A DNA stretch of 63,972 nt, the filler included, from an uncultured Methanosarcinales archaeon (GTDB lineage Archaea > Nanobdellota > Nanobdellia > Woesearchaeales > GW2011-AR9), in NCBI GenBank assembly GCA_964434885.1. It is 7 parts of 5 records of this genome, joined end to end, with 100 filler letters (N's around TTAATTAATTAA, not from the genome) between each part and the next. Parts side by side here need not be neighbours in the genome. Positions count along the whole stretch, not along the records: positions 11,427 to 25,559 come from CAYSWQ010000001.1; 6 more parts are not named here. One strand, written 5' to 3'. The notes beneath the pieces were generated by a model, which searched no databases, was not told the DNA's origin, and saw only the letters and a list, made by a program, of their open reading frames with translations. Shown here piece by piece: positions 11,427 to 25,559 of the stretch; positions within the stretch are counted from its first letter, which is position 1, and each line of letters opens with the position of its first letter. The translations under genes were made by a program, and so were the position numbers.

Positions 11427-11577
11427 GTTGTTGGGTTGGAAGAAACTGTGAAGTGGAAAGATTATTTTGAAGTATGGAAAACCGAAAGCTATATAAATCA
11501 CTTGTTTTCCTTTGAAATGTTCAAGTGTGATTACAGTAAAAACAGTAATTACTTAAAACTAGCGAGGTGTTTTAAAC

Positions 11578-12216
11578 ATGACAAGTAATGAATCGTTATA
11601 TGCATGTATCAAGTATGATATGAAAAGAAAGGAGACCCGGCGTTGTTTGGACCAAATGCCGGAGACGAATGAATTAATTTCTAATTATTTGGATAATTTA
11701 GTTTTAGAAGCTAAAGAAAATCCCTATTGGTGCGAGGCAATAGTTAAAGCCAATGAATTGAATACAGGGATTAAATGTTCTGAAGAAGAATCATTTACTT
11801 ATTTTAACCAACAAGGACAAGAAATGTACATGGAAGATGCATTTGCTATTTCATTAATAGCAGAAGGTCTTAGTTTGGCAGACGAAATTGGTTTAGAAGA
11901 AAAATTAGAAAGAATTAGGCCAGTTAATGAAAAAGGATTGTTTTTGTTGTTGCCAAGGATGGAAGGGGTTTTAAGTAAAATGGGTTATGGGGGGGTAGAA
12001 AAGCCATTGTATAGTGATGCAGATGGTGTGATTAAAGTTGAAGGTCAAGATCCAACTGCAAGATATGAGAATTTAACTACTTCTGGTGATTTGAGTGAAG
12101 ATAATATGCAACGATTGAGAAAGAAAATGAGTGGTAGCTCGGATGGAAACACTGGTTTGTTTTATGTTGGTGGGTTGTTTGAAAAAGAATTAAGACCTCA
12201 ACCAGAACTAAGTTAA
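11578..12216 (+). CDS. Hypothetical protein (212 aa)
   Basis: Clean ORF with GAGGTG SD and an upstream TATA-like box (tatataaa near 11490); no recognisable family. Confidence 0.7.
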   Translation: MTSNESLYACIKYDMKRKETRRCLDQMPETNELISNYLDNLVLEAKENPYWCEAIVKANELNTGIKCSEEESFTYFNQQGQEMYMEDAFAISLIAEGLSLADEIGLEEKLERIRPVNEKGLFLLLPRMEGVLSKMGYGGVEKPLYSDADGVIKVEGQDPTARYENLTTSGDLSEDNMQRLRKKMSGSSDGNTGLFYVGGLFEKELRPQPELS

Positions 12217-12223
12217 TAATTTC

Positions 12224-12358
12224 TAATCCCTCTTGATTGCCTTCAAAATTCTGAACATATGTATGATTGTGCTACATCCCCGGATGGGGCGTCTCCCCGT
12301 AACGCACGCGAGGTTGTTGGTGTGGGAATTTTGACCGAATGGCAATGGTGAGGGATTA
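12224..12358. ncRNA. Candidate structured non-coding RNA, family unknown
   Basis: 65/135 GC (48%) in an AT-rich genome. Nested stems: taatccctc/gagggatta, attgcc/ggcaat, tcaaaattc/gaattttga, gtgc/gcac, tac/gta. Capped by two short hairpins. Confidence 0.6.
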
Positions 12359-12412
12359 TACCATACTAAGTTAATAGAAAAACTTAAAAACCAGCTACTT
12401 TTAGAATATTGT

Positions 12413-13033
12413 ATGGGAAATAAAATTGTTTGTCGGGCAGTAATTGAAGTTCTAGGTCAACCAAAAGAACATGTTGAAAAAGCAATGCAAGAATATATTG
12501 GTAATCTGAAAAAAGATGAAAGATATCAAATTATTCGAGAAGATTTTGCAGAATTAAAAAAACAAGATAATAATCTTTGGGCTACTTTTACAGAAATGGA
12601 GATAGAAGTAAAAGAGATTAAAGATGTAGTGAGTTTTTGTTTTGAATATATGCCCTCTTTGATTGAAATTATTGAACCTGAAAAAATAACTTTAACTGAC
12701 CGAGATTTCTCTGATTTTTTTAATGATTTACAAGCTCGTTTGCACCAAGTAGATATGGTAGCTAAGCAAGTTAAATTAGAAAGTGAACATTCAAATGTAA
12801 GTATGAATAAATTATTACGTAATTATGTGGTGATGTTGCTTAATGAAAGAGATTTATCAATGGAAGAATTAAGTAAATTTACTGGAATTAAAGAAGAAGT
12901 ATTAGGTGATTATTTAGATGGATTGGTAGATCAAAAAATATTGGAAATGGAAAAAGGAGTTTATCATTTAAATAAAGAGCAATTGCTTGCTGAAAAAGAG
13001 GGTGGATCAGATGGAGAACAATCAAGACAATAA
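12413..13033 (+). CDS. Conserved archaeal hypothetical protein with C-terminal wHTH
   Basis: IEVLGQPKEHV...FEYMPSLIEIIEP N-domain; LSMEELSKFTGIKEEVLGDYLDGLV HTH; overlaps scpB start. Confidence 0.7.
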   Translation: MGNKIVCRAVIEVLGQPKEHVEKAMQEYIGNLKKDERYQIIREDFAELKKQDNNLWATFTEMEIEVKEIKDVVSFCFEYMPSLIEIIEPEKITLTDRDFSDFFNDLQARLHQVDMVAKQVKLESEHSNVSMNKLLRNYVVMLLNERDLSMEELSKFTGIKEEVLGDYLDGLVDQKILEMEKGVYHLNKEQLLAEKEGGSDGEQSRQ

Positions 13034-13883
13034 ACATAAAGTTGAAGCAGTTTTGTTTGCAGTAGGGAAGGAAATTTCTACAGAAAGATTAGCTAGTTTA
13101 TGTGATTTAAAAGAAAAAGAAATTAAGCAAGTAATGGAAGAATTGAGGAAAGACTATGGTGAGAGGGAAAATTCTTTGCAAATTATGCAACGTGAAAATA
13201 ACTGGAAATTAACTGTCAGAGATGAATTTATTGGATTGGTTAACAATCTTGTTTCTGAAACTGATTTGGATAAACCATTAATGGAAACTTTAGCCGTAAT
13301 TGCTTGGAAGTATCCAGTAGTACAATCAGATGTCATAAAATTAAGACATTCTAAGGCGTATGATCATATTAAACAACTATTAGACATGGGTTTTATTCAA
13401 AAAATTCGTTCTGGTCGGACCTATAAGTTAAAGTTAACTAAGAAATTCTTTGAGTATTTTGATTTACCTTCTGCCGAAGCTAAAAAAGCTTTTTTGAAAG
13501 AAGTTCCTGCGGAAGTTTTGAAAGAAGCAGAAGAAACTGAAAAGGAAGCAGGAGAAGTAGAATTGTTGTTGGAAAAAGAAGAGAAAGAAGAGAATGCTCG
13601 TTCAGAGATTAAAGGGGCAATGGCCCAGGTGAAGAGTGCTGAAGAAAGTGATGATGGAGTGGAAGAAGAGAGTGTGGACTCTGAAGAAGGGGTTGATGAA
13701 GGACAGACCGTGTTAGTCACTAATCAAGTTCCAGAAGAAGGAGTGAGCGAAGTGGAAGAAGGAGAAGAAATGGAACTAGGAGAAGATGATGAAGACTCTG
13801 AAGAGATGGGTTCGGAAGAAATGACAAGTGGAAAGAAGAAAAAGAAGAAACAAAAAGAGATGATAAGTCAAGTTTTTGGCTGA
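13011..13883 (+). CDS. scpB: SMC-Scp complex subunit ScpB with long acidic tail
   Basis: VEAVLFA, METLAVIAWKYPVVQSDVIKLR, TKKFFEYFDL; ATG at 13011 follows GAGGGTGG. Confidence 0.92.
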   Translation: MENNQDNKHKVEAVLFAVGKEISTERLASLCDLKEKEIKQVMEELRKDYGERENSLQIMQRENNWKLTVRDEFIGLVNNLVSETDLDKPLMETLAVIAWKYPVVQSDVIKLRHSKAYDHIKQLLDMGFIQKIRSGRTYKLKLTKKFFEYFDLPSAEAKKAFLKEVPAEVLKEAEETEKEAGEVELLLEKEEKEENARSEIKGAMAQVKSAEESDDGVEEESVDSEEGVDEGQTVLVTNQVPEEGVSEVEEGEEMELGEDDEDSEEMGSEEMTSGKKKKKKQKEMISQVFG

Positions 13884-13892
13884 ATTTTCCGA

Positions 13893-13905
13893 AAGGTTTA
13901 TAAGG
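13893..13905 (+). promoter_or_regulatory. Archaeal BRE-TATA promoter of gyrA
   Basis: gaaaggTTTATAAg; the same purine-rich-then-TTTATA pattern precedes many genes in the window. Confidence 0.5.
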
Positions 13906-14000
13906 GTATTGGACTTCTTATTTTATATAATTTGTCGACGATAAATTTAAGTTTAATAATCTAAATGATTTAACTGAGATTAGTCAAAAAACTAGTAAAA

Positions 14001-16556
14001 ATGGATGAAGAAAATTATGAAAAAACAAGTGATTTAAGTAAAGATAATTCTATTAATTTTCTTTCTGAGGAAGAAGTTAGAGATGAAGCAATTGGGTACA
14101 ATAAATTGTGGAATAAAGGGAACGAAATGGTTAAAGATTATCAAAGTTCAGATAAAATTGTTTGTAAAGTTATTGAAGATGAAATGAAGCAGGCTTATGT
14201 TGATTATGCAATGTCGGTGATTGTTGGTCGAGCATTACCAGATGTTCGAGATGGATTAAAACCAGTACATAGAAGAATTCTTTTTGCAATGAATGAAATG
14301 GGGATGTTTCATAATAAACCCTATAAAAAATGTGCTCGAATTGTAGGGGAAGTGTTAGGTAAATATCACCCACATGGAGATACTGCTGTTTATGATGCTT
14401 TAGTTCGGATGGCACAGTCTTTTTCTCTGAGATTACCTTTGATTAACGGACAAGGTAACTTTGGAAGTATTGATGGTGATCGAGCGGCAGCGATGAGATA
14501 TACAGAAGCTAAGTTAAACAAATTGGCAGAAGATATGTTGAGAGACATCGATAAAGAAACTGTTAGTTGGAAACCTAATTTTGATGGTTCATTAAAAGAA
14601 CCAGAAGTCTTACCTGCAAAAATACCTAATCTTTTAGTTAATGGATCGAGCGGAATTGCAGTGGGAATGGCAACTAATATTCCACCCCACAACCTTAAAG
14701 AAGTTTGTCAAGGAACGATTGCAGTAATTGAAAACCCAGATATTTCTCCAGATGAATTAATGCAAATAATCCCTGGTCCTGATTTTCCAACTGGAGGAGA
14801 AGTTACGGCAAGAGATAACTTAAAATGGGCTTACCATAAAGGTCGGGGAAAAGTTATTATTAAATCAGTAGCAGAAATTGAAGAAAAAAGAATCATCATT
14901 AAAGAAGTACCTTATCAAGTCAATAAAGCAGAATTGATTGAACAAATTGCTGATTTAGTAAGAGATAAGAAAGTAGTTGGTATTAGAAATATTAATGATG
15001 AATCTGACCGGGAAGGAATTAGGGTTGTGGTGGATTTGAAGAAAGATGCTGATGGTCAAGTAGTGTTAAATCAGTTGTTTAAATATAGTAGATTAAAAGT
15101 TACTTTTGGAATTAATTTATTGGCTTTGGTAAATAATGAACCAAAAACATTGGGATTGAAGGATTTAATTGAATACCATATTAAACATCGACAAGAAATT
15201 ATCCGAAGAAGGACAGAATATGATTTAAAACAAGCAGAAAAAAGAGTTCATGTTTTAGAAGGATTGATTGTTGCTTTAGATAATATTGATGAAGTGATTC
15301 CAGGAATCCGTAATAGCAAGACAGTAGAAGAAGCAAAGAATTTCTTAATGAGCAATTATAGTTTATCAGAGATTCAAGCTAAAGCAATTTTGGAAATGAA
15401 GTTACAAAAATTAGCTTCATTGGAACAAGAAAAGATCAAAAAAGAACATCAAGAATTAATGATTAAAATTGAAGGATATCAAGAAATTCTAGGTTCTGAA
15501 AGTAAAATTTTAGAATTGATTAAATCAGAATTAACCGAAGTTATGGAAAAATATGGAGATGATCGTAGATCAAAAATTATCGAAGGGGAAGATGTTGGTT
15601 ATGTAGATATGGAAGAGTTGATTGAAAAAGATACTGTGGTAGTAACCATTACTAAATCTGGATATGCTAAAAGATTACCTTTAGATACTTATCGGACGCA
15701 ACGGCGAGGGGGGAAAGGGATTAAAGCTACAGGAATGAAAGAAGAAGACTTTGTAGAACATTTATTTATCACTTCTACCCACACATATTTATTGTTGTTT
15801 ACTGATTCTGGCCAAGTTCATTGGTTGAAAGCTTATATGATACCGGAAGGAAGCAGAATTGCTCGTGGAACACATATTGCTAATTTAATTGGTTCTAAAG
15901 ATCCAATTACTACTGTAGTGCCAGTAGATGACTTTACCAAAGGTTATTTATTTATGGCTACTCAAAAAGGAACAGTTAAAAAAACTAATTTGCAAGATTT
16001 TTCTCATCCTAGAAAAGGTGGAATTAGAGCGATTGGTTTAGATGAAGATAATAAACTAATTGGAGTTAAGTTAACAGATGGTAGTCAAGAGATCATATTA
16101 GCTAGTCGCCGAGGAATGGCAGTAAGGTTTAGAGAAAGTGATGTTCGACCAATGGGAAGGACTGCTTTTGGAGTAAGAGGAATTAGATTAGGTTCTGGAG
16201 ACAAAGTAGTGGGTATGATTGTAGCGGAAGAGGGAAAGAACATCTTAACTATTACAGAGAAAGGTTATGGTAAAAGAACTTCAATTGATGAGTATCGACT
16301 AATTGGTCGTGGTGGTAAAGGAGTAACTAATATTAAAGTGATGGAGAAAAATGGACCAGTAGCTTATGTAATGTTAGTAAATGATAGTGAAGAATTAATG
16401 TTGATTTCAAAATCAGGAATTGCAATTAGGATTAATTGTGGTGGGATTTCTAAGATTGGTAGGGCGACGCAAGGAGTTCGGGTGATGAGATTGGGAGAAG
16501 GAGACCAAGTAGTTACTGCTGCAAAGATTGTTGAGGAAGAAGATGGGTCAGAGTAG
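14001..16556 (+). CDS. gyrA: DNA gyrase subunit A
   Basis: RALPDVRDGLKPVHRR, YHPHGD, catalytic AAMRYTE, GyrA-box QRRGGKG, beta-pinwheel C-terminal repeats. Confidence 0.97.
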   Translation: MDEENYEKTSDLSKDNSINFLSEEEVRDEAIGYNKLWNKGNEMVKDYQSSDKIVCKVIEDEMKQAYVDYAMSVIVGRALPDVRDGLKPVHRRILFAMNEMGMFHNKPYKKCARIVGEVLGKYHPHGDTAVYDALVRMAQSFSLRLPLINGQGNFGSIDGDRAAAMRYTEAKLNKLAEDMLRDIDKETVSWKPNFDGSLKEPEVLPAKIPNLLVNGSSGIAVGMATNIPPHNLKEVCQGTIAVIENPDISPDELMQIIPGPDFPTGGEVTARDNLKWAYHKGRGKVIIKSVAEIEEKRIIIKEVPYQVNKAELIEQIADLVRDKKVVGIRNINDESDREGIRVVVDLKKDADGQVVLNQLFKYSRLKVTFGINLLALVNNEPKTLGLKDLIEYHIKHRQEIIRRRTEYDLKQAEKRVHVLEGLIVALDNIDEVIPGIRNSKTVEEAKNFLMSNYSLSEIQAKAILEMKLQKLASLEQEKIKKEHQELMIKIEGYQEILGSESKILELIKSELTEVMEKYGDDRRSKIIEGEDVGYVDMEELIEKDTVVVTITKSGYAKRLPLDTYRTQRRGGKGIKATGMKEEDFVEHLFITSTHTYLLLFTDSGQVHWLKAYMIPEGSRIARGTHIANLIGSKDPITTVVPVDDFTKGYLFMATQKGTVKKTNLQDFSHPRKGGIRAIGLDEDNKLIGVKLTDGSQEIILASRRGMAVRFRESDVRPMGRTAFGVRGIRLGSGDKVVGMIVAEEGKNILTITEKGYGKRTSIDEYRLIGRGGKGVTNIKVMEKNGPVAYVMLVNDSEELMLISKSGIAIRINCGGISKIGRATQGVRVMRLGEGDQVVTAAKIVEEEDGSE

Positions 16557-16989
16557 TTTGGATGAGACTTTGTTTCCGTTGGAAACCAATAAAAAATATT
16601 CTGCCAAGGAATTGTATAAAGTTTTACTTGAAGAAAGAAAAGACTATAGTTTATCTCTAGCAGCCAATTGGGGAACTTTGAAAAAAGATCGAAGTACTAG
16701 AAAATTGAAATATGGTCAAATTAATCACCGGTTTTTGAAAACACTGGAAGCAGGTTTAGAGAATTCAGAATTACATTCACTAGAGTTGGAATTTGTTAGG
16801 AAAGGAATCGAATTGGACGCCGAGTATGTAGAATTTGTTGATTTTTGGTATGAATTAAGAGTTGATAATGGTCGCCAAAAAACTTATCAAGTAACTTCCT
16901 ATGCAGTCAGCAATAGATTTAATGATTTTATTGAAGTTGATTTGTTACGACCAAAAAAACAAGGGCCAAGGAAAACCAGCAAAAAATGA
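16543..16989 (+). CDS. Hypothetical protein
   Basis: ORF overlaps gyrA stop and the next start (ATGA), suggesting translational coupling. Confidence 0.6.
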   Translation: MGQSSLDETLFPLETNKKYSAKELYKVLLEERKDYSLSLAANWGTLKKDRSTRKLKYGQINHRFLKTLEAGLENSELHSLELEFVRKGIELDAEYVEFVDFWYELRVDNGRQKTYQVTSYAVSNRFNDFIEVDLLRPKKQGPRKTSKK

Positions 16990-18026
16990 AAATAATAATT
17001 TTAACTAATTTTGAAGAATTGAGTTTGTTAGAGATTAAAGAATTAGTTAATGTTAAAGGAAAGAAAGTTGGTTCTGGTGTTATTAAAGTTGATGTTTCGG
17101 AAGAAGAAATGTTGGTTTTGTGTTCTCGTGGACAATCTTTCAAAAGAGTTTTGTTAAATGTAGATAGTGTTGATGATTTAGAAGATATTAATTTAAGTGG
17201 TTTTGAATGGTCTGATGTTTTATGGCCAGAATGTAGTTTTAAGGTAGAGATTGAAGGAGTTAAAGGGAATGAAAAAAGAATTGAAATTGGGCGTAAAATT
17301 GCCGATTTGGTTCTGGCTGTCGTTGATTTTAAATTGAATATAGATTTTAAGAAACCAGAAGTGGGAGTTTATTTATATTTTGATGGAAAAAAATATTTTT
17401 TGGGAATAGATTTGATTGGTTATGAAATGAATAAAAGAGATTATCGAGTGTTTGTTAATTCTGCTTCATTTAAAGGAGATATTGGTTATTATTTAGTTCG
17501 TAAATCTGATTTTGTTAAAGGAGAAAAATTAGTAGTAGGTTTTGTTAAAGATGGAACTACTTTGATTGAAGCAGGTTTATTTGATGTTGGGAAAGTAGTA
17601 AATAAAAAATTTAGTTTTGAAAAGTTTCCTAAATTTAAAGAATTGAAGAAGAAAGAAATAGAGAAGAAAGAAACTAAAGTACAAGGTTTTGATGAAAGTA
17701 TGGTTAATGTTCGGGCAGCGCGGAAGAATGCCCAACTTGCGGGTGTTTATGTTACAGCGAATAAATTTGACTTGGATGAATTAGATGTTAAATTTTCAGA
17801 AGGGGAAGTTGATAGGTTGATTTTTCAAATTACTAAAAAAGATGAAGATAAATTAAACGAAATTTATTATCAGGCAAATTATGTTTTACGAAAAAAAGGA
17901 ACTTTGTTGATTTTAAGTCGGGAAGGATGGGAAATTTCTGTTTCTGATAAATTTAAATTGGTTGGTTCGGAAGTTATTAAAAAAGGACAGAGCAGTTATA
18001 AGATTTGGTTGTTGGAGAAGAAATAG
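16986..18026 (+). CDS. THUMP-domain tRNA methyltransferase-like protein (Trm14/TrmN-like) with degenerate SAM motifs
   Basis: THUMP (SFKVEIEG..IDFKKPE..LGIDLIG..KRDYRVF) followed by a Rossmann-like domain with GTTLIEA and ARKNAQLAGV. Confidence 0.75.
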   Translation: MKIIILTNFEELSLLEIKELVNVKGKKVGSGVIKVDVSEEEMLVLCSRGQSFKRVLLNVDSVDDLEDINLSGFEWSDVLWPECSFKVEIEGVKGNEKRIEIGRKIADLVLAVVDFKLNIDFKKPEVGVYLYFDGKKYFLGIDLIGYEMNKRDYRVFVNSASFKGDIGYYLVRKSDFVKGEKLVVGFVKDGTTLIEAGLFDVGKVVNKKFSFEKFPKFKELKKKEIEKKETKVQGFDESMVNVRAARKNAQLAGVYVTANKFDLDELDVKFSEGEVDRLIFQITKKDEDKLNEIYYQANYVLRKKGTLLILSREGWEISVSDKFKLVGSEVIKKGQSSYKIWLLEKK

Positions 18027-18076
18027 TTTTGATTAAAACCAAACGATTTAAAAATAATAAAATATTACTTCTAGAT

Positions 18077-18817
18077 ATGGTTAATATATTAGAGTTAATG
18101 TCTCGTATCCAAAAACATCTTAGGTTTAATCATCAAGAACTGGTTGGTTTAGTTTTAGGGATTTTAGTAACAGGATTTATTTTTTCTTTTAAAGATTGGG
18201 GAGTAGATAAATTTAATTTGTTAGTGGGCTTGAAGAATTTGGTTATTACGGTTTTGGCTGCGTTAGTTGGTTATCTTGCCCATTTAATTCCTCAAAAGAT
18301 TTATGCATTGGGAGAAGGTTATTTAGCAGAATTTAAACCCTGGTGGCCAGGAATAATTATTGCTTTAGTTTTGGGTTTTGTTTCTGCTGGAAATATAACT
18401 TTGATTCTGGCAGGAGGAATGTTTTTGTCATTTATGGTCAGACACAGGCTAGGGGAGTTTAGATATGGTTATAATTTAGAACAACAGGCAGTAACTGGTT
18501 TTTGGGGAGTTTATGGTTTGTTGATAATGGCTACAATTTTCCGTATTTTCACTTACTATTTTCCCAAAGTTTTATTTTTTGAAAAAGGATTATTGATTTG
18601 TTTAATTTTTGCAATATGTGCATTATTGCCAATTCCAGGAATGAATGGATTAAACTTATTTTTTGGTTCCAGAATGATTTATTTTTTTAGTTTGATTTTA
18701 GTAGTGGTATTTTCATTATTGTTTTGGTTAGGTGGGGGAATTGGTTTAGTAGTGGCAATTGTTGGTCAAATCATGGTTGGAGGATATTATTTATTGGCGG
18801 TGGGTTCGGAAAAATGA
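18077..18817 (+). CDS. M50/site-2-protease-like membrane protein with degenerate HExxH
   Basis: Multi-TM; AHLIPQKIYA at the HExxH position; LLPIPGMNG at the NLLPxxPLDG position. Confidence 0.65.
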   Translation: MVNILELMSRIQKHLRFNHQELVGLVLGILVTGFIFSFKDWGVDKFNLLVGLKNLVITVLAALVGYLAHLIPQKIYALGEGYLAEFKPWWPGIIIALVLGFVSAGNITLILAGGMFLSFMVRHRLGEFRYGYNLEQQAVTGFWGVYGLLIMATIFRIFTYYFPKVLFFEKGLLICLIFAICALLPIPGMNGLNLFFGSRMIYFFSLILVVVFSLLFWLGGGIGLVVAIVGQIMVGGYYLLAVGSEK

Positions 18818-19152
18818 AAATTGAAGAATATTGGGTGGAAACTTTAACTATGGTTTTTATACTAGTTGGTTTTGTGATTTCATTGTTATTGGTAAGTCAT
18901 TCAATAGCATATTTTATTGTGCTTTTGTCTGGTTTCTTGGCTGGAAGAATTTTCTACATGAAAAGATTCAAAGAACCAATTTTTCCTTTTGTTGTAATGA
19001 TTGTTGGTTTCTTATTTGGTTATCTTTTAGGTGGTTTTGGAATGAGTAAAGTTTGGATTGTTGTTTTGTTTTTAGTGAGCTGGGGAATTTCATATTACTT
19101 GCATAAAGCAAAAATAATCAAAATCTTTAAAAGTAAGAACTTTATTAAGTAA
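18814..19152 (+). CDS. Small 4-TM membrane protein
   Basis: Four hydrophobic segments; ATGA overlap with the upstream gene. Confidence 0.7.
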   Translation: MKIEEYWVETLTMVFILVGFVISLLLVSHSIAYFIVLLSGFLAGRIFYMKRFKEPIFPFVVMIVGFLFGYLLGGFGMSKVWIVVLFLVSWGISYYLHKAKIIKIFKSKNFIK

Positions 19153-19156
19153 AGAC

Positions 19157-19444
19157 ATGGATAGTTTTCGAAATAAGAGTATTATCATCAGCAGGAAGCC
19201 AGGAAAAGATTCTGAAGATTATGATGTACAGATTGCATTATTTGGAGAGAATAATCCTCATTTAAAAGGACATGTTCCATTTAAAGTTTTAGAGTATAAT
19301 AATATTGAAAAAGTGAGAATAAGAGAGTTAGAAAATGTTTCTTATTATACTGCCGGAAATGATATTGTGATTAATGACTTAGTAGAATTGAATATTGGGT
19401 TGGAAGATGGAATCATTACTTTGACTGGTAAACAAGAATTTTAG
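19157..19444 (+). CDS. Hypothetical protein (beta-rich)
   Basis: ORF starts 4 nt after the previous stop; host-like codon use. Confidence 0.65.
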   Translation: MDSFRNKSIIISRKPGKDSEDYDVQIALFGENNPHLKGHVPFKVLEYNNIEKVRIRELENVSYYTAGNDIVINDLVELNIGLEDGIITLTGKQEF

Positions 19445-19619
19445 TATCATTTGATAGTGGTGTTTTTATTCTAGAAACATTTATAAGTGAGGTTCTTATC
19501 TATAATAAAGAATAAAAAGAGCTAAAAACATTAATATAAAGTTGGCGGAAACAGATAGTCAAAAACTAATTCTGTTTCAAAATTATATATTACTGAAGTA
19601 TTAGCAACGAGGAAATAAA

Positions 19620-20873
19620 ATGAAATTTGAAGAATTAAATGTAAAACCAGAGATTGTATCTCGGTTACAAAAAGAAGGAATTGTAGAAGCAACTACAATC
19701 CAAGAAAAAACAATTCCTTTAGTACAAAAAGGACATGATGTTATTGGAATCTCTAGAACTGGTTCTGGAAAAACAGTTAGTTTTGGTGTACCTTTGTTAG
19801 AACAAATGGAATTGGGTAGAGGGATTCAGAGTGTTGTATTGGCCCCGACAAGAGAATTAGCTAACCAAATCTCTAGTGAGATGAAAAAATGGTGTGATTT
19901 TAAGATTGCAACAATTTTTGGTGGTGTGGGAATGGAACCACAAATTGAAGCCCTCTGTACAGCTGAAATTGTAGTGGGAACTCCTGGAAGAATGCTAGAT
20001 CATTTACAAAGAGGAAATTTGGATTTAACTAAAGTAAAAGTTTTTGCTTTAGATGAAGCAGATAAAATGGTAGAAATGGGGTTTATTGAAGATATTGAAG
20101 AAATTTTAATGGGGATGCCTAAAAGTAGACAAATTTTACTTTTTGGAGCAACTATTTCTAATGAAATTGATTATCTGAAAAAGAAACATATGAACAATGT
20201 TGTTGTGGCGGAAGCAGAATTACATGTGAAAAAAGATTTATTACAACAATTCTATTATAATGTTAAAGTTCATGAGAAATTTTCTTTGTTAGTGCATCTT
20301 TTGAAGCAAGAAGAAATGGGAAGAGTGATGATTTTTTGTTCTAAAAGAAGTACTGTGGATTTGGTTAATCATAATTTGAAATTACAAGGAGTAAAGGCAG
20401 AAATGATTCATGGGAAAATGACTCAAAATAAAAGGTTGAGTGTGATTAAAAGGTTCAATACTGATAAAGTGAATATTTTGGTAGCATCAGCTGTTGCCGC
20501 TCGTGGATTAGATATTAAAGACGTAACCCATATCTTTAATTATGATTTGTCTCAAGATCCGCAAGAATATATCCATAGAATTGGTCGGACTGCTCGAGCA
20601 GGTGAAGCTGGAAAAGCAATTACTTTACTTGCTGAACCAGACTATCAGAATTTTGATGGGATTTTTGCTCGTTATGATGTGGATATTGAAGAATTGGAAC
20701 CTGGACATTATCAGAAGTTGAAGTTTGAAACTGGTTTTCAGAGAAGTGGATTTCGAGGAAGAAATGGTTCTCGAGGTGGGTTTCGAGGAAGAAATTTCCA
20801 TGGAAGAAGAAATTTTAGAAATGGTAGTGTGAATCGAAATAATGATTCTGGTGTAAGCCAGAATTTTAATTAA
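19620..20873 (+). CDS. DEAD-box RNA helicase with FRGRN-repeat basic tail
   Basis: TGSGKT, PTRELA, TPGR, DEAD, ARGLD and HRIGRTAR motifs. Confidence 0.95.
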   Translation: MKFEELNVKPEIVSRLQKEGIVEATTIQEKTIPLVQKGHDVIGISRTGSGKTVSFGVPLLEQMELGRGIQSVVLAPTRELANQISSEMKKWCDFKIATIFGGVGMEPQIEALCTAEIVVGTPGRMLDHLQRGNLDLTKVKVFALDEADKMVEMGFIEDIEEILMGMPKSRQILLFGATISNEIDYLKKKHMNNVVVAEAELHVKKDLLQQFYYNVKVHEKFSLLVHLLKQEEMGRVMIFCSKRSTVDLVNHNLKLQGVKAEMIHGKMTQNKRLSVIKRFNTDKVNILVASAVAARGLDIKDVTHIFNYDLSQDPQEYIHRIGRTARAGEAGKAITLLAEPDYQNFDGIFARYDVDIEELEPGHYQKLKFETGFQRSGFRGRNGSRGGFRGRNFHGRRNFRNGSVNRNNDSGVSQNFN

Positions 20874-21016
20874 TTTTTTTTATATTTTGGATTGGGTTTA
20901 ACTGTAAATATATGGCGTTAACTGGCTGTTTCTGAGCATCTCAAAAACTGAGATATATAGCCAATATAAGTGAAATGTTAAGGACGTTTTTATGTTAGTT
21001 CTGACATGTACTTATT

Positions 21017-21460
21017 ATGGCACGTGAGAGGTGCAAAACAATGAACGTCTTCCAAAAAATTAAAATTGTACGAGAGATTATAAAAGAGGTTTTTCCTAAG
21101 ATGGAAATAGAACAACTAACACAAGAAGTACAATTTCTAGCTAATAACTGGCATGGGAAAAAAAGAAAGACAGGTATTAAATTAACCAGACAGCAGATGG
21201 TGTTATATGATCTTCTCTTAAAGAACCAATATTATCCTGATACAGTTTATCGTTGGCTACTGTTAGCAACCGCCCCAGAGGATGTTAAAGAAAAGTTACG
21301 TAATCAAGAAATCAGTATCAAAACAGCTTTAAATCTGAGAAGACAGCAGAAAGAATATCCTTCTGTTACAGAACGAGAATTTATGGACACCATCATTAAT
21401 TGTATTGAAACTTTTATTTCTGAAGCTGGAGAGAATTATCCCGGGAGGACGATAAAATGA
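21017..21460 (+). CDS. Helical DNA-binding protein with ParB/KorB-HTH-like segment; partner of the recombinase
   Basis: TVYRWLLLATAPEDVKEKLRNQEISIKTALNL resembles the ParB HTH-region motif (LRLLxLPxxVxxxLxxGxIS); ATGA overlap with the recombinase. Confidence 0.6.
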   Translation: MARERCKTMNVFQKIKIVREIIKEVFPKMEIEQLTQEVQFLANNWHGKKRKTGIKLTRQQMVLYDLLLKNQYYPDTVYRWLLLATAPEDVKEKLRNQEISIKTALNLRRQQKEYPSVTEREFMDTIINCIETFISEAGENYPGRTIK

Positions 21461-22251
21461 ACCAATATCATCTAAGTGCAAAACAAAGGCTTCCAAAAGT
21501 GCTTAATAAAAAACAATTACTTTCTACCTTAAGACATGTTAAATCTCCAACCGTTCTAATGGGGATGTTCCTAAGTATTTTTTTAGGTCTTAGAGTCGGA
21601 GAGATTTCTTATGATGATCGAAGGAAAATCATTCCACTTAAATGGGAAAATATTGACTTAGAAATTGGAGAAGTACTTATCCTTGATGCCAAAAATCCAA
21701 AACGGTATAAAAGTGGGTATGGAAAGGACAGAATAGTTCCTATCTTTGACGAGTTTATTCACATTTTTAAGATGTGGAAAAAAATCAACCCAGATTCAGA
21801 ATATGTTTTACCACATCAGAGCAGAAAAGGACAGCCCCTTAATGTGGCCACCTTACAAAGACATTTACAGGAAGCTTTAGAAAAAGCCAATTTAATGCAA
21901 GTTGAATATTACCAAACAGACGGAAAACCCCGTTACATGTACCATTATCATACTTTAAGACATGTTTCAGCAATAAATCTATTAAGAAAAGGAATGACTG
22001 TTGAACAAGTTAAAGAATTTCTTGGTCATGAAAATATTGAGTCAACTATGGTCTATCTTAAATTAGTAAAAGAGGATCTTAAAGAAGCAGTCACTCACGC
22101 TTTTGCTTACCCCAAGAAAAGAAAATATTTCTTAGATTTAGAAAAACCTAATTTTAATTTAGAGACAGGGTTGGAAGCTTTACGTCTAGAAAATGAAAAT
22201 TTGAAGATGAAAATGCAGCTACAACAACCAGTAATGGTGGTGCAACAATGA
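21457..22251 (+). CDS. Tyrosine recombinase/integrase (catalytic domain only, C-terminal coiled coil)
   Basis: GLRVGE (R), AKN (K), HTLRH, LGH, TMVYL (Y): catalytic residues intact. Confidence 0.93.
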   Translation: MNQYHLSAKQRLPKVLNKKQLLSTLRHVKSPTVLMGMFLSIFLGLRVGEISYDDRRKIIPLKWENIDLEIGEVLILDAKNPKRYKSGYGKDRIVPIFDEFIHIFKMWKKINPDSEYVLPHQSRKGQPLNVATLQRHLQEALEKANLMQVEYYQTDGKPRYMYHYHTLRHVSAINLLRKGMTVEQVKEFLGHENIESTMVYLKLVKEDLKEAVTHAFAYPKKRKYFLDLEKPNFNLETGLEALRLENENLKMKMQLQQPVMVVQQ

Positions 22252-22628
22252 TTTCTGGTAAGAATTATGAACGTGAATTTGTTCGGTTAATGACAAAATG
22301 TGGATTAGATTGTCATCGTATTGCTGGTTCAGGTGTTGGGTCTGAAGCTGTTTGTGATTGTATTCTCTTCTATAAGAATAAAACTTATCTCGTTGAAGTT
22401 AAAGCTACTAAAGAAAAGAAATTATATGTCCGCAGTAGAGTAAGAAAACAGTTAGAAGAGATGTTTAAAGTATGTGAAAGGAACAAAGTTATTCCTCTAT
22501 TTGCGATTAAGTTTAAACATCGTGGATGGAATCTCAAAGTAATTCGAGACTATTCTCATGTAGAATTTGATAAGGAGGTGATTTTAAATGAAAAGAACTA
22601 TTGCCGAAAGAATTTACCGATTAATTGA
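22248..22628 (+). CDS. hjc: Archaeal Holliday junction resolvase, Hjc family
   Basis: GKNYERE...RIAGSG...D...LVEVK PD-(D/E)XK motif. Confidence 0.88.
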   Translation: MISGKNYEREFVRLMTKCGLDCHRIAGSGVGSEAVCDCILFYKNKTYLVEVKATKEKKLYVRSRVRKQLEEMFKVCERNKVIPLFAIKFKHRGWNLKVIRDYSHVEFDKEVILNEKNYCRKNLPIN

Positions 22629-23043
22629 AGATGAAGGTCCAAAAACAATCAAGGCGCTGAGAAGGAGATTACCAGATATTAACCCGAAGTCAATTAATAT
22701 GGCTGTTTCTCATAAGAAACATTTATTCCTTGGTTTAAGTAAGGGTAGAGTTGGATTAGTTGAAGTTCATAATTACATCTTAAGGAGGGAGAAAAAAAAG
22801 GAGAACATAAACTTAGCCATATATCAACGTATTGTGAACTTATTGGTTTGTGGACCAATGCGCATTGAAAGAATAACTGAAGAAATGCCAGATATTAACT
22901 CCAATAGCATTGAAGTTGAGATAAGTAATCATCCAGAACTGTTCTTACGAATTAAACCTGGACTGATTGGTAGAAGAGGAAGAGACGAATATTTAAAAGA
23001 GAAATATGCTAGAAAGTCATTCTCCAATTCCTCTTCTTCTTAA
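22588..23043 (+). CDS. Tandem winged-helix protein (two internal repeats)
   Basis: IAERIYRLI..GP.TI..L...PDINPKSI..LF and IYQRIVNLL..GPMRI..I..PDINSNSI..LF. Confidence 0.7.
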   Translation: MKRTIAERIYRLIEDEGPKTIKALRRRLPDINPKSINMAVSHKKHLFLGLSKGRVGLVEVHNYILRREKKKENINLAIYQRIVNLLVCGPMRIERITEEMPDINSNSIEVEISNHPELFLRIKPGLIGRRGRDEYLKEKYARKSFSNSSSS

Positions 23044-23178
23044 TTCTTTAAGTACTGCCATTCGGATGAAAGAAGAATGAGTGATATTGTTACCGCAAGC
23101 TTGACCTATTTTCTTCCATTGTTCTGGAGAAAAACAAACACTTCTTGACTGCATCCGATTCCTAACTCTCTGTAACAT
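23017..23178 (-). CDS. Small ribbon-helix-helix (CopG-like) protein, 53 aa, absent from the ORF track
   Basis: Manual translation MLQRVRNRMQSRSVCFSPEQWKKIGQACGNNITHSSFIRMAVLKELRRRGIGE*; GGTGA SD; overlaps the upstream RHH gene stop. Confidence 0.7.
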   Translation of the reverse strand: MLQRVRNRMQSRSVCFSPEQWKKIGQACGNNITHSSFIRMAVLKELRRRGIGE

Positions 23179-23362
23179 CTTCACCACACAAATTTTTATG
23201 AATTTGATCTATTTTTTCGATGAAAGATAATTCCATGAAAATCATAAAACGGACATAATCACTTTTATTTGAAAATCCTAACCTCTCAATCTTTTCATTC
23301 AAACTTTTTTCTTGTTCTGAAGTTAGAAGCAAAATGAATTGTTTTGTATATTTTTTCTTCAT
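23162..23362 (-). CDS. Ribbon-helix-helix DNA-binding protein
   Basis: FILLLT-SEQEKSLNEKIERLG-FSNKSDYVRFMI strand-helix-helix pattern. Confidence 0.75.
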   Translation of the reverse strand: MKKKYTKQFILLLTSEQEKSLNEKIERLGFSNKSDYVRFMIFMELSFIEKIDQIHKNLCGEDVTES

Positions 23363-23384
23363 GTAATTATTAGTAGATTAAATA

Positions 23385-23657
23385 TTATATATTTGTAACC
23401 CTGGGGAATTTTCTTGTCCTTTTAACAAAATCAGTGATTTTCCTTTGATTTAGATCTGATCTCTTAGTAAATGCAGGATTACCATCAAGAAAAACTCTAG
23501 CTATTAAACGATGACTGTCATTTATAATAACATCACAATGTAAGACTGTCCCTTTGTTTAGCCCATGTGGTTTACAGAGAAGTTTACTTAAAGAAATGAA
23601 AGGAGTGCCTTTGTTAATTTGTATTTTGCTTTGCCAGTCTATTATTTGTTTAGACAT
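23385..23657 (-). CDS. AbrB/MazE-like swapped-hairpin DNA-binding protein
   Basis: SKIQINKGTPFISLSKLLCKPHGLNKGTVL; alternative GTG start at 23684. Confidence 0.55.
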   Translation of the reverse strand: MSKQIIDWQSKIQINKGTPFISLSKLLCKPHGLNKGTVLHCDVIINDSHRLIARVFLDGNPAFTKRSDLNQRKITDFVKRTRKFPRVTNI

Positions 23658-23772
23658 ATGGTAACCTCTTTCTGTGATCACCACCTCTTTTATTTCATAA
23701 GCCTTTTATACTATTAAAGCGTTTTGGTTTATTATTTTTACAATATAAAGATTTGATAGATGTTCTTTTACA

Positions 23773-24756
23773 ATGTTAAACGATAAGACTAACCTCAAGA
23801 TTCTGTCCGAGCTGGACAAGAATTCAAGAATATCTTACACAGATCTAGGAAGAAATATAAAATTAACTAAACAGGCTATTAAACATCGTTTGGATAAATT
23901 AATCCAAGCAAGAGTGATTTCACATTTTCTTACAATTGTCAATATCGGTAAAATTGGATATACATCTCATAAAATATTCTTTTCATTTCACAATCTCTCA
24001 AATGAAAAACGAAAGGAGATTATCAAGTATCTTAGGAACAACAAGTTCGTTGGTGCTTTTGCTTTATGTGATGGACCTTATGATTTGTATTTAGGTATTA
24101 TAACTAAAACTTGTCATGATCTTAATAGGGAACTTTCAAAGTTTTACAATCTTTTCTCAGAACAAATAAAATCAAAGAAAGTTGCCACTATAGTTAAGGC
24201 TGAATTTTATAACCGTGATTATTTAACAAATAAAGAAAGAAAAATCGGTGAGAAGAAAAAATGGTTCTGTTCAAAAGTTGAAAAAGCTAAAGATCTTAAA
24301 CCAGTGGATAAAAAAATCTTAACATACTTAGTTAGGTCTCCAAGAACTTCCTTTGCTACAATTGCACGAAGATTGGAAACTTCAACACAAAATGTGAGTA
24401 ACAGAATTAAATTTCTAGAAGAGAACCAAATTATTGAAGGACATACAATAGCACTTAATGAGAAAAAATTTGATTTTATTCATCATAAAATATTATTGGA
24501 GTTCAGTTCAACTCCAGAAGCGGTTGAAATACAATTGAGAGGATTTTTTGAATCGCAACCCAACATTACTTATTTTGTAAAAACGTTTGGAGAATGGGAT
24601 TATGAATTTAATATAGAAACAAAAAGCTTTGATGAATATAGAAAGATAATTGAAGATTTTAAGAAATTATTTTCTCCTTATCTTAAGAATTTCACTCCTT
24701 TATTAATTAATCATGTTCCCAAATTCAAATATATTCCAAATTTTAAGAATCAATAG
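23773..24756 (+). CDS. Tandem (duplicated) Lrp/AsnC transcriptional regulator
   Basis: Two HTH+RAM units: LDKNSRISYTDLG...GPYDL and LVRSPRTSFATIA...GEWDYE. Confidence 0.9.
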   Translation: MLNDKTNLKILSELDKNSRISYTDLGRNIKLTKQAIKHRLDKLIQARVISHFLTIVNIGKIGYTSHKIFFSFHNLSNEKRKEIIKYLRNNKFVGAFALCDGPYDLYLGIITKTCHDLNRELSKFYNLFSEQIKSKKVATIVKAEFYNRDYLTNKERKIGEKKKWFCSKVEKAKDLKPVDKKILTYLVRSPRTSFATIARRLETSTQNVSNRIKFLEENQIIEGHTIALNEKKFDFIHHKILLEFSSTPEAVEIQLRGFFESQPNITYFVKTFGEWDYEFNIETKSFDEYRKIIEDFKKLFSPYLKNFTPLLINHVPKFKYIPNFKNQ

Positions 24757-25006
24757 TAAGTCCAACTAACAATTTCTCTTTGTTTAATAGATCGTTGATC
24801 AAATCTTTAAGGACGGTAGGAATCTTAGGATCTTCTAAATTTACTGACATATTAGCTTCAAATGAAGGTACAGATTGTTCTACGATGTAAACTACTTCTA
24901 GTTTGTACTCATCTTTCAACTGAGAATCAACTGTTTCCTGTAACTTGTTTACTATTTCTTTCCCTTGGGGTGTTTCTCCTTTAAGATATAATTTTATTGT
25001 CTGCAT
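24743..25006 (-). CDS. kaiB: KaiB-like protein (87 aa, divergent)
   Basis: IKLYLKGETPQG...LQETVDSQLKDEYKLEVVYI...LINDLLNKEKLLVGL aligns by eye with cyanobacterial KaiB LKLYVAGNTPNS...LKNILE..F.GVYALKVIDV...IIGDLSDREKVLIGL. Start M31 of the track ORF lies about 25 nt from a TATA-like box. Confidence 0.78.
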   Translation of the reverse strand: MQTIKLYLKGETPQGKEIVNKLQETVDSQLKDEYKLEVVYIVEQSVPSFEANMSVNLEDPKIPTVLKDLINDLLNKEKLLVGLTIDS

Positions 25007-25107
25007 TTTTAAGTATTTAAATAGTGAATTTATATAAGTGTTACGGTAATAATTTAGTTTTGAAAATAGTTGAAAGGTTTTTAAATTAAGGTGCATTTTC
25101 TTTAATA

Positions 25108-25302
25108 ATGGGACAAAATGATATTTATCAATTCTTAAAGAAGAATAAAAATAAGTGGTTTAGTTCTAGAGATATCTGTGAATCATTAAAAGTGGGTTCA
25201 AGTTCCGTATCTACTTGTTTGAAAAGGTTAAGAACCCATAAATTTGTTTTCTTCAAACAAGATCCAAAAAGGAAGAATATCTTTTTGTATAAAGTCAGAT
25301 GA
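25108..25302 (+). CDS. Small winged-helix protein
   Basis: IYQFLKK..WFSSRDICESLKVGSSSVSTCLKRL. Confidence 0.8.
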   Translation: MGQNDIYQFLKKNKNKWFSSRDICESLKVGSSSVSTCLKRLRTHKFVFFKQDPKRKNIFLYKVR

Positions 25303-25559
25303 TTGATACAACTTTGATTAATAAACTTGAAGAGTTATGTAAACAGGAAAGAAAAATTAAAGGATTTAAAAATTTGTTAAGAGTTAGAGGTAAGATTAAA
25401 AATAAATCTTTAACTAAAAAAGGAAACATTAAATTGAAAGTTAAGAGGGGCGAGGATATTTTTAGATTAGTAGTTTTACAAAGTCATAAAGAAAGGTTTA
25501 AGTTAGCTGAAAAGTTAGTTGAGGGCAACAATGTTTCTGTTATTGGAATTAAGAAATTA
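25299..25559 (+). CDS. OB-fold protein (3'-truncated)
   Basis: VRGKIKNKSLTKKGNIKLKV...LVEGNNVSVIG. Confidence 0.6.

Follow-up and report, generated by a model that had tools for sequence, protein, structure and literature searches.

Four overlapping genes at positions 21017-23043 of a 63,972-nucleotide stretch of DNA (the window, filler included), taken from an uncultured archaeon of the order Woesearchaeales (GenBank assembly GCA_964434885.1), are proposed to constitute an integration module in which a tyrosine recombinase (YR) is divided between two proteins and is encoded together with a Holliday-junction resolvase, Hjc. In order of transcription, the genes encode ORF1, a helical protein of apparent helix-turn-helix (HTH) type, the YR, Hjc, and ORF4, a tandem winged-helix (wHTH) protein. 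This gene run had been noted in an initial annotation made from the sequence, and ORF calling reproduced its coordinates as well as the 4-nt ATGA overlaps at 21457 and 22248, while a 41-nt overlap (22588-22628) connects the last two genes.

The module would represent the integration/excision unit of a family of mobile islands found in Woesearchaeota-type DPANN archaea, and would be located at one end of the island. ORF1, with its putative ParB/KorB-like fold, would be anchored via its C-terminal helix to a YR that consists of the catalytic domain alone, and would supply the DNA-binding function that is normally given by the missing N-terminal core-binding domain. In one deep YR lineage, which includes the window copy, a mobile-element-type Hjc appears to be translationally coupled to the YR, having never been lost in the copies seen and usually being followed by the tandem wHTH gene; this Hjc may act on the four-way junction made by the YR, thereby either finishing the reaction or rescuing it. 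There is good support for the split recombinase and for the conserved gene set, and the junction step of Hjc is one that we infer; taken as a whole, the statement that this is an island integration module with a two-subunit YR and with Hjc acting on the junction is considered plausible, if slightly short of probable.

A tyrosine recombinase probably divided between two proteins

The YR produces a match to PF00589 that lies well above the cut-off (79.2 bits against 27.1; E 4.2e-22), in which residues 57-204 correspond to profile positions 40-169. Because this match enters at profile position 40, i.e., at residue 57, the catalytic domain is placed as beginning near residue 17, the sequence RLPKVL occupying residues 11-16. 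A family profile based on 29 relatives covers just residues 94-276 of the Pyrococcus abyssi XerA structure (4a8e; E 8.6e-35) and positions 90-262 of the 263 positions of the NCBIfam XerA model NF040815 (E 2.3e-21; 76.5 bits, the equivalog cut-off being 220). As both alignments reach the catalytic half of XerA only, the core-binding domain is truly absent from the YR, in agreement with the initial annotation. The latter had furthermore attributed a full set of catalytic residues to the protein, which is borne out by the comparison with the 29 relatives: R46, H165, R168, H191 and Y200 are invariant among them, while K79/K90 are at least 90% conserved. For this purpose, the catalytic residues are taken to be R-K-H-R-H/W-Y in the YR and, for the resolvase discussed below, E..D..ExK. 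The same genome also possesses a separate, full-length Xer-like gene at C33:489-1280.

ORF1 was found to be a near-obligate partner of this recombinase. Among genomes of the same order, a short YR follows no more than 40 nt past the end of ORF1 for 24 of the 27 ORF1 genes that have at least 300 nt of downstream DNA, one of the three misses being the first of two tandem ORF1 copies, and the same arrangement was observed for 39 of 43 such genes in GTDB species genomes. When the YR was used as a query, ORF1 was located directly before it in all 45 loci of a metagenome set that have upstream DNA; these three surveys overlap in part and some of their recombinases are fragments. A second ORF1-YR pair (128 and 241 amino acids (aa), respectively), without Hjc, is present in the same genome at C7:384-1499. 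Furthermore, a natural ORF1-YR fusion of 421 aa (P0112) occurs on two contigs, representing one among the 150 best family representatives, and its YR part falls inside the Hjc-linked YR clade that is described below.

Prediction of the ORF1-YR complex returned ipSAE values of 0.83, 0.84 and 0.84, whereas the best-scoring of the three controls reached 0.01. The threshold applied to this score is attained by 116 of 157 solved complexes and by 2 of 215 mismatched pairs, counts that hold roughly here given that own alignments were used. At least 67% of the contacts are common to the runs, with a partner pLDDT of 74 or more. In the predicted interface, the last helix of ORF1 (residues 119-140) packs on YR residues 17-42, 97-110, 170-178 and 204, at the initial helices of the catalytic domain, while the HTH body of ORF1 stays free, in the manner of an N-terminal DNA-binding domain. 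Both the survey of gene neighbourhoods in other DPANN genomes and the complex modelling had been suggested by the initial annotation, which envisaged site recognition being supplied in trans by the upstream protein; the former indicates that the module genes co-occur widely in Woesearchaeota-type genomes and metagenomes. Based on the genomic data and structure predictions combined, a recombinase composed of two polypeptides, i.e., ORF1 and a catalytic-domain-only YR, is considered highly probable rather than proven.

ORF1 itself did not match any Pfam or NCBIfam family, including the N-terminal ParB/Srx (CTP-binding) domain, and a sequence search against the PDB yielded nothing credible (the best hit, at E 0.022, being a reductoisomerase). 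Its AlphaFold2 (AF2) model comprises seven helices (pLDDT 85.5). In an all-versus-PDB structure search, the top four rows were the DNA-binding domains of Spo0J, KorB, ParB and KorB at Z 5.1-5.7, a range which helical models often reach by chance, and the best fold match has a root-mean-square deviation of 3.0 Å across 77 residues. The same ParB/KorB-type proteins were ranked first by Foldseek (E 0.43; probability 0.69-0.77), and a PHROG ParB-like family was matched at E 0.039. Since these scores are weak for a helical protein, a ParB/KorB-like HTH fold is to be regarded as a lead and not as family membership. Accordingly, the earlier description of a ‘helical ParB-HTH-like protein’ holds with respect to the helices, while the ParB-HTH likeness derives from weak fold matches. 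A SAM-like core-binding domain was also considered for ORF1, and none is present among the top fold rows listed, although absence from these is not decisive.

The ORF1 family is small, with 208 representatives retrieved by profile search from 1.84 billion proteins, nearly all of which are 80-210 aa in length. Relatives are encoded by 29 of 201 genomes of the order, in up to three copies each. According to their record titles, the 51 ORF1 loci detected in GTDB species genomes belong to Woesearchaeota (26), Nanoarchaeota/Nanoarchaeia (10), ‘uncultured Methanosarcinales’ (12), ‘archaeon’ (2) and Saccharibacteria (1). We read the ‘Methanosarcinales’ titles as automatic mislabels, and one such contig of 41,750 nt was placed in the window's own order by a genome search. 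The module appears to be a variant of tyrosine-recombinase systems that is so far confined to Woesearchaeota-type DPANN archaea. With the search patterns used, no ORF1 relatives were found in IMG/VR viral contigs, and a virus origin of the module was set aside on this basis.

ORF1 is sometimes doubled: two tandem genes are present at L010:1025-1860, and four proteins of ~205 aa (P0058, P0082, P0093 and P0103) each contain two ORF1-matched stretches. At L038:5473-6876 (G022:C1), an ORF1-like domain is situated near the N-terminus of a 468-aa protein, the remainder of which matches no Pfam family; a 138-aa recombinase fragment is located 1.5 kb downstream, and this arrangement may represent a decayed copy.

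A mobile-element-type Hjc linked to one recombinase clade

The gene downstream of the YR was described initially as an intact hjc, and this description stands. The encoded protein matches PF01870 across the whole model length (E 2.7e-16; 59.7 bits against a cut-off of 21.1), and the acidic/lysine motif is retained, with the E, D and ExK columns being kept in all seven module copies that were aligned. Its score against the NCBIfam equivalog NF040854, 48.7 bits, is under the cut-off of 70. The possibility that this is the sole, vertically inherited hjc was raised at the outset and is ruled out, as a canonical copy is present elsewhere in six of six genomes checked. In this genome, the canonical gene is located at G000:C3:49025-49420 and scores 91.2 bits versus 59.8 for the module copy; in the five other module-bearing genomes the canonical copy scores 93-100 bits and the module copy 35-53 bits. 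In the Hjc tree, 15 housekeeping copies are separated, with an SH-aLRT of 100, from a clade that unites the module copies with two other mobile-type copies. Furthermore, a YR is encoded within 1.5 kb of none of 23 housekeeping-type hjc loci (none of 21 without the unpublished genomes G121 and G183), these 23 being part of the 30 best loci retrieved across 201 genomes of the order.

In a tree of 49 YRs, the six that are accompanied by Hjc form a single clade with 100/100 support, and a seventh locus was later found to fall inside it. When 51 more metagenome loci were added, the resulting tree of 61 YRs contained an Hjc clade of 28 rows (SH-aLRT 98; stem 1.34), in which Hjc is encoded directly downstream of the YR in 24 rows, four rows are truncated where their contig stops, and no row is without Hjc; outside this clade, Hjc is found beside none of 28 pair-type YRs. 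The start/stop overlaps between YR and Hjc are kept across the clade, and the sister pairs L029/L101 and L009/L015 are recovered in both the YR tree and the Hjc tree. That Hjc is retained at a fixed, overlapping position, when the remainder of the island is variable, is what would be expected of a functional unit. Such strict co-inheritance with one YR clade, as judged from gene order and phylogeny, fits the idea, advanced in the initial annotation, that Hjc may resolve a junction left after one strand exchange.

The largest YR clade, which is a sister clade, features a different additional gene. Located on the opposite strand, this gene encodes YR2, a second tyrosine recombinase that is minimal in size (core of ~168 aa) and highly conserved. 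YR2 was found in 15 loci, all of which belong to this clade, and in none of the Hjc-clade loci. In the present genome it is found at C7 (G000:C7:384-3885; loci L004 and L005), where it is convergent with, and 1.5 kb downstream of, the second ORF1-YR pair. The notion that Hjc and YR2 are interchangeable third components is weakened: the two are mutually exclusive, but several YR clades possess neither.

Two genomes of the order were additionally observed to carry another mobile module (L103:140-3244 and L124:3-2629), in which a mobile-type Hjc is encoded together with an ATP-dependent DNA ligase and a ~500-aa protein whose N-terminal part forms a winged helix.

Putative mobile islands with the module at their edge

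Contigs from public metagenomes diverge from the window at 20862, 20881 and 20899, these loose ends being situated between the helicase gene and ORF1, and further divergence points of public-run contigs are located at 23583, 23746/23971 and 25370/25417. The nearest relative (L133/L134) displays 69% DNA similarity over window positions 20980-23402, corresponding to the four genes and two ribbon-helix-helix (RHH)-like genes, its YR being 78% identical. The divergence points and the extent of similarity agree with a mobile island that has the module at its edge. Two of the loose-end sequences are absent from the organism's own assembly, which is 92% complete. Among the public runs listed as containing matching sequence, none derives from RNA.

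One side of the ORF1-YR pair is typically occupied by housekeeping genes, represented in the window by a DEAD-box helicase gene and elsewhere by genes for ribosomal proteins, a GTPase, eIF2-gamma, AspRS/GatCAB or proteasome/FttA. The cargo on the other side is variable and includes toxin-antitoxin, DISARM, Schlafen, type I restriction-modification, GmrSD, UvrD-nuclease and NERD genes, often with an N6/N4 methylase. Modules that are 80% identical in DNA sequence were found in genomes of different GTDB families, and an island of ~9 kb is common to metagenome contigs L139 and L150, where it resides at different host loci.

Convincing attachment (att) repeats were not detected among own-genome repeats of the intergenic region, in 49 kb of G108, inside the module, between the population breakpoints or in pairwise comparisons of 13 islands. 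Similarly, neither an empty site nor an excised circle was found, and an empty-site comparison with two genomes of the same family gave no result, as the gene order surrounding the DEAD-box helicase gene is not conserved.

Individual islands exhibit features of their own. For example, an ICE-like (integrative and conjugative element-like) island at L044:943-9598 (G108:C1) in a DPANN genome encodes the ORF1-YR pair, in which the YR is 357 aa long with a SHOCT-like tail, a NikA-like RHH protein, a DUF6731 protein, a TrbC/VirB2-type pilin and a 1002-aa VirB4/TraG-type ATPase. At L041:784-7524 (G030:C10), DISARM-like genes (encoding a DrmE C-terminal domain and a 1206-aa helicase) and a gene for a CARF-winged-helix protein adjoin the module and a methylase gene, while at L101:1877-2713 (G119:C9) a gene of the Mom DNA-modification family (E 2.5e-42) is positioned directly 3' of Hjc.

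Weighing of alternative explanations

Several observations weigh against the proposed role of the module. As no att site or direct repeat was found, integration is deduced from genomic context alone; moreover, contig C1 stops at 25559, 2.5 kb past the module. The fold matches of ORF1 are weak, and the ORF1-YR fusion is known from a single sequence. The YR retains every residue for a complete two-step exchange. Approximately half of the ORF1-YR pairs surveyed are without Hjc, which is absent from every other clade, and because these other clades lack it, the pair does not generally need Hjc. In addition, the two Hjc genes of the same clade at L103 and L124 are located between the genes for the ~500-aa wHTH protein and the DNA ligase with no YR nearby, a setting that fits a role in replication or repair, while the frequent presence of a DNA methylase or Mom-like gene 3' of the module allows a restriction-like reading of Hjc.

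It may be that ORF1 and YR already form a complete integrase, and that Hjc is a general branched-DNA nuclease of the element (serving replication, concatemers or recombination intermediates) that is merely co-transcribed. Archaeal viruses encode Hjc-type resolvases, and this explanation would account for the ligase-associated Hjc genes, the intact catalytic residues of the YR and the clades in which the pair occurs without Hjc. It sits less well with the finding that Hjc occupies one fixed overlapping spot in 24 of 24 readable clade members, while other island genes vary, and accompanies none of the 28 YRs of other clades. Replication genes are not conserved beside Hjc in the 8-kb flanks read, and the failure to find ORF1 relatives among IMG/VR viral contigs also speaks against it; we regard this explanation as unlikely, yet deserving of serious consideration. 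The fold of Hjc is that of restriction endonucleases, and Hjc, the winged-helix protein and an adjacent methylase could alternatively constitute a cassette of restriction-like or addiction type with a stabilising effect on the island. N6/N4 methylase genes directly after Hjc, or one to two genes further on (L139, L150, L152, G030 and G041:C90), the Mom-like gene 3' of Hjc in L101, the abundance of defence genes among the cargo and a weak match of Hjc to the candidate defence protein PDC-M29B (E 2.4e-6) are consistent with such a cassette. It is nevertheless improbable, given that no methylase is encoded in the 2.5 kb after the window's module, that the link of Hjc to the YR is strict while that to methylases is not, and that Hjc is a minimal protein of 105-128 aa, lacking a specificity domain and matching the Hjc model at full length.

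A further explanation, which we judge to be very improbable, holds that ORF1 and YR act as an atypical relaxase of the SGI1 MpsA/MpsB or pCW3 TcpM kind, nicking an oriT for conjugative transfer. According to the consulted sections of PMC6414798, MpsA is indeed a YR-fold protein that needs a separate protein, MpsB, both being encoded on a bicistronic mRNA. The pair in L044 is followed by the NikA-like RHH gene and by genes for a type IV secretion system (T4SS) pilin and a VirB4/TraG-type ATPase, and RHH-like genes are also present 3' of the window module. However, L044 is the only one of ~15 annotated neighbourhoods in which T4SS genes were found beside the pair, and the location of the pair at the island edge, against housekeeping genes, resembles that of an integrase. 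Moreover, as a search of 48 kb on the island side of L044 revealed no other YR, this island would have no integrase at all if the pair were a relaxase.

We favour the reading in which the module integrates and excises the island by means of a two-subunit YR, with Hjc acting on the junction. A more specific version, which is speculative and rather unlikely to apply in full, envisages a three-enzyme machine: the HTH subunit would target the YR, the YR would swap one pair of strands, and the co-translated Hjc would cut the resulting Holliday junction, a second step that YR2 may perform in the sister clade.

Layout of the locus and further genes

The module is situated in the last 14 kb of contig C1 (window 11427-25559, corresponding to G000:C1:75327-89459) of a host genome of 1.07 Mb that is distributed over 66 contigs. 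The window chains the ends of contigs C1, C2, C3, C4 and C46 (N runs within 3814-57013), each joint consisting of 44-N runs flanking a 12-base linker, and features are not to be read across the joints. The G+C content is ~31% throughout, and no tRNA gene is present within the window. PADLOC called no known defence system. The features of the locus are listed in Table 1. The ATGA at 21457-21460 also falls inside a repeat arm.

Table 1. Genes and candidate border of the module, in window coordinates
Feature	Position	Strand	Description
Intergenic stretch, candidate left border	20862..21016	.	Between DEAD-box helicase gene (stop 20873) and ORF1
ORF1	21017..21460	+	147 aa; helical HTH-type protein, proposed DNA-binding recombinase subunit
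Tyrosine recombinase (YR)	21457..22251	+	264 aa; catalytic domain alone and C-terminal helical tail; member of Hjc-linked clade
Hjc	22248..22628	+	126 aa; extra, mobile-element-type Holliday-junction resolvase
ORF4	22588..23043	+	151 aa; tandem winged-helix protein
Two small ribbon-helix-helix-like genes	23017-23187, 23162-23362	-	Kept together with module in nearest relative

The description of ORF4 as a tandem wHTH protein is confirmed by its AF2 model (pLDDT 87.6), which displays two winged-helix units of helix-helix-helix-strand-strand (HHH-EE) topology followed by a C-terminal helix. Foldseek searches with this model gave weak matches to the wHTH proteins ScpB, YodB, Z-beta and MntR (E 0.006-0.05; probability 0.85-1.0), while no Pfam family scored above its cut-off. 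Of 22 metagenome loci with Hjc, 13 have an ORF4 homologue encoded after it, and a search of a 5.8-billion set returned five related proteins in all.

For the two small genes on the opposite strand, there is one weak NikA-like match (E 0.007, under the cut-off), and the RHH assignment of the 56-aa protein of this pair was made by eye. Further 3' of the module, the contig carries three more genes (23773-25302) before it ends. Their products are a protein of 327 aa that contains two HTH units of the Lrp/AsnC type, one of 117 aa for which a KaiB-like match is weak (E 0.0018), and a MarR-like winged-helix protein of 64 aa.

Implications

Tyrosine recombinases are generally presented as self-sufficient enzymes, in which site binding, formation of the Holliday junction and its resolution are all carried out by one polypeptide. 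The family described here would divide DNA binding and catalysis between two proteins as a whole, and one of its deep lineages appears to have kept a resolvase attached throughout the sampled divergence. Should Hjc indeed take part in the reaction, no earlier case of a resolvase serving as the dedicated partner of a site-specific recombinase would be known to us, and the three-enzyme version would amount to a hybrid recombinase/resolvase route to integration or excision. To our knowledge, the mobile elements of DPANN archaea are almost unstudied, and the module may serve as a marker for mobile defence islands in these organisms, as well as offering a compact system of three or four proteins for biochemical study.

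Comparison with known systems

The nearest ‘split’ precedent is the MpsA/MpsB system of SGI1, in which, similar to the module, a catalytic protein of the YR superfamily is encoded alongside a small protein of DNA-binding type. As described in the consulted sections of PMC6414798, MpsB is a separate 98-aa protein that resembles a core-binding domain, and MpsA/MpsB acts as a relaxase. The module differs in that the gene order is reversed, the top fold matches of the partner, though weak, are to ParB/KorB-like rather than SAM-like proteins, the host is archaeal, the pair is located at an island border and no oriT is known. In addition, a resolvase does not feature in the MpsAB system as outlined in those sections, whereas the module includes Hjc.

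A parallel among archaea is provided by the SNJ2-type operon of haloarchaeal pleolipoviruses (Int, Orf2 and Orf3), which likewise combines an archaeal integrase with co-transcribed small helper proteins, one of which is a MarR-like winged-helix protein (PMC8371274, in part). The same excerpts state that IntSNJ2 possesses its own N-terminal Phage_int_SAM domain and is active without helpers, that many of its relatives are without helpers, and that some archaeal recombinase families show only PF00589; the terms ‘DPANN’ and ‘Woesearchaeota’ are absent from the main text of that review of archaeal recombinases. In contrast, the YR of the module is without an N-terminal domain, its partner is near-universal and its operon includes a nuclease.

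XerA/XerC/XerD provide the best sequence match to the catalytic domain and share its catalytic residues. The YR departs from XerA in the missing core-binding domain, in a score far below the equivalog cut-off, and in its patchy, multi-copy occurrence on mobile islands. Similarly, the module Hjc has the fold family (PF01870) and catalytic motif in common with archaeal and viral Hjc proteins, but, unlike housekeeping Hjc, it is an extra copy that belongs to a separate mobile-element clade, scores under the equivalog cut-off and is fixed downstream of the YR. A description of a recombinase-Hjc operon, or of this split recombinase, was not found in the literature accessible outside subscription journals and supplements.

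With respect to the proposed junction step, the closest comparison is with CTX-phi and the integron integrase. In these systems, according to excerpts of PMC3442271 and PMC4792948, only one pair of strands is exchanged and the junction is finished by non-recombinase means, thought to be replication, with the affinity of Endo III for junctions aiding CTX-phi integration. No dedicated resolvase is encoded with the recombinase for these reactions as the excerpts present them, whereas in the module Hjc is encoded alongside the YR; if Hjc takes part, the module would offer a natural parallel to the replication-dependent completion of the integron and CTX-phi reactions.

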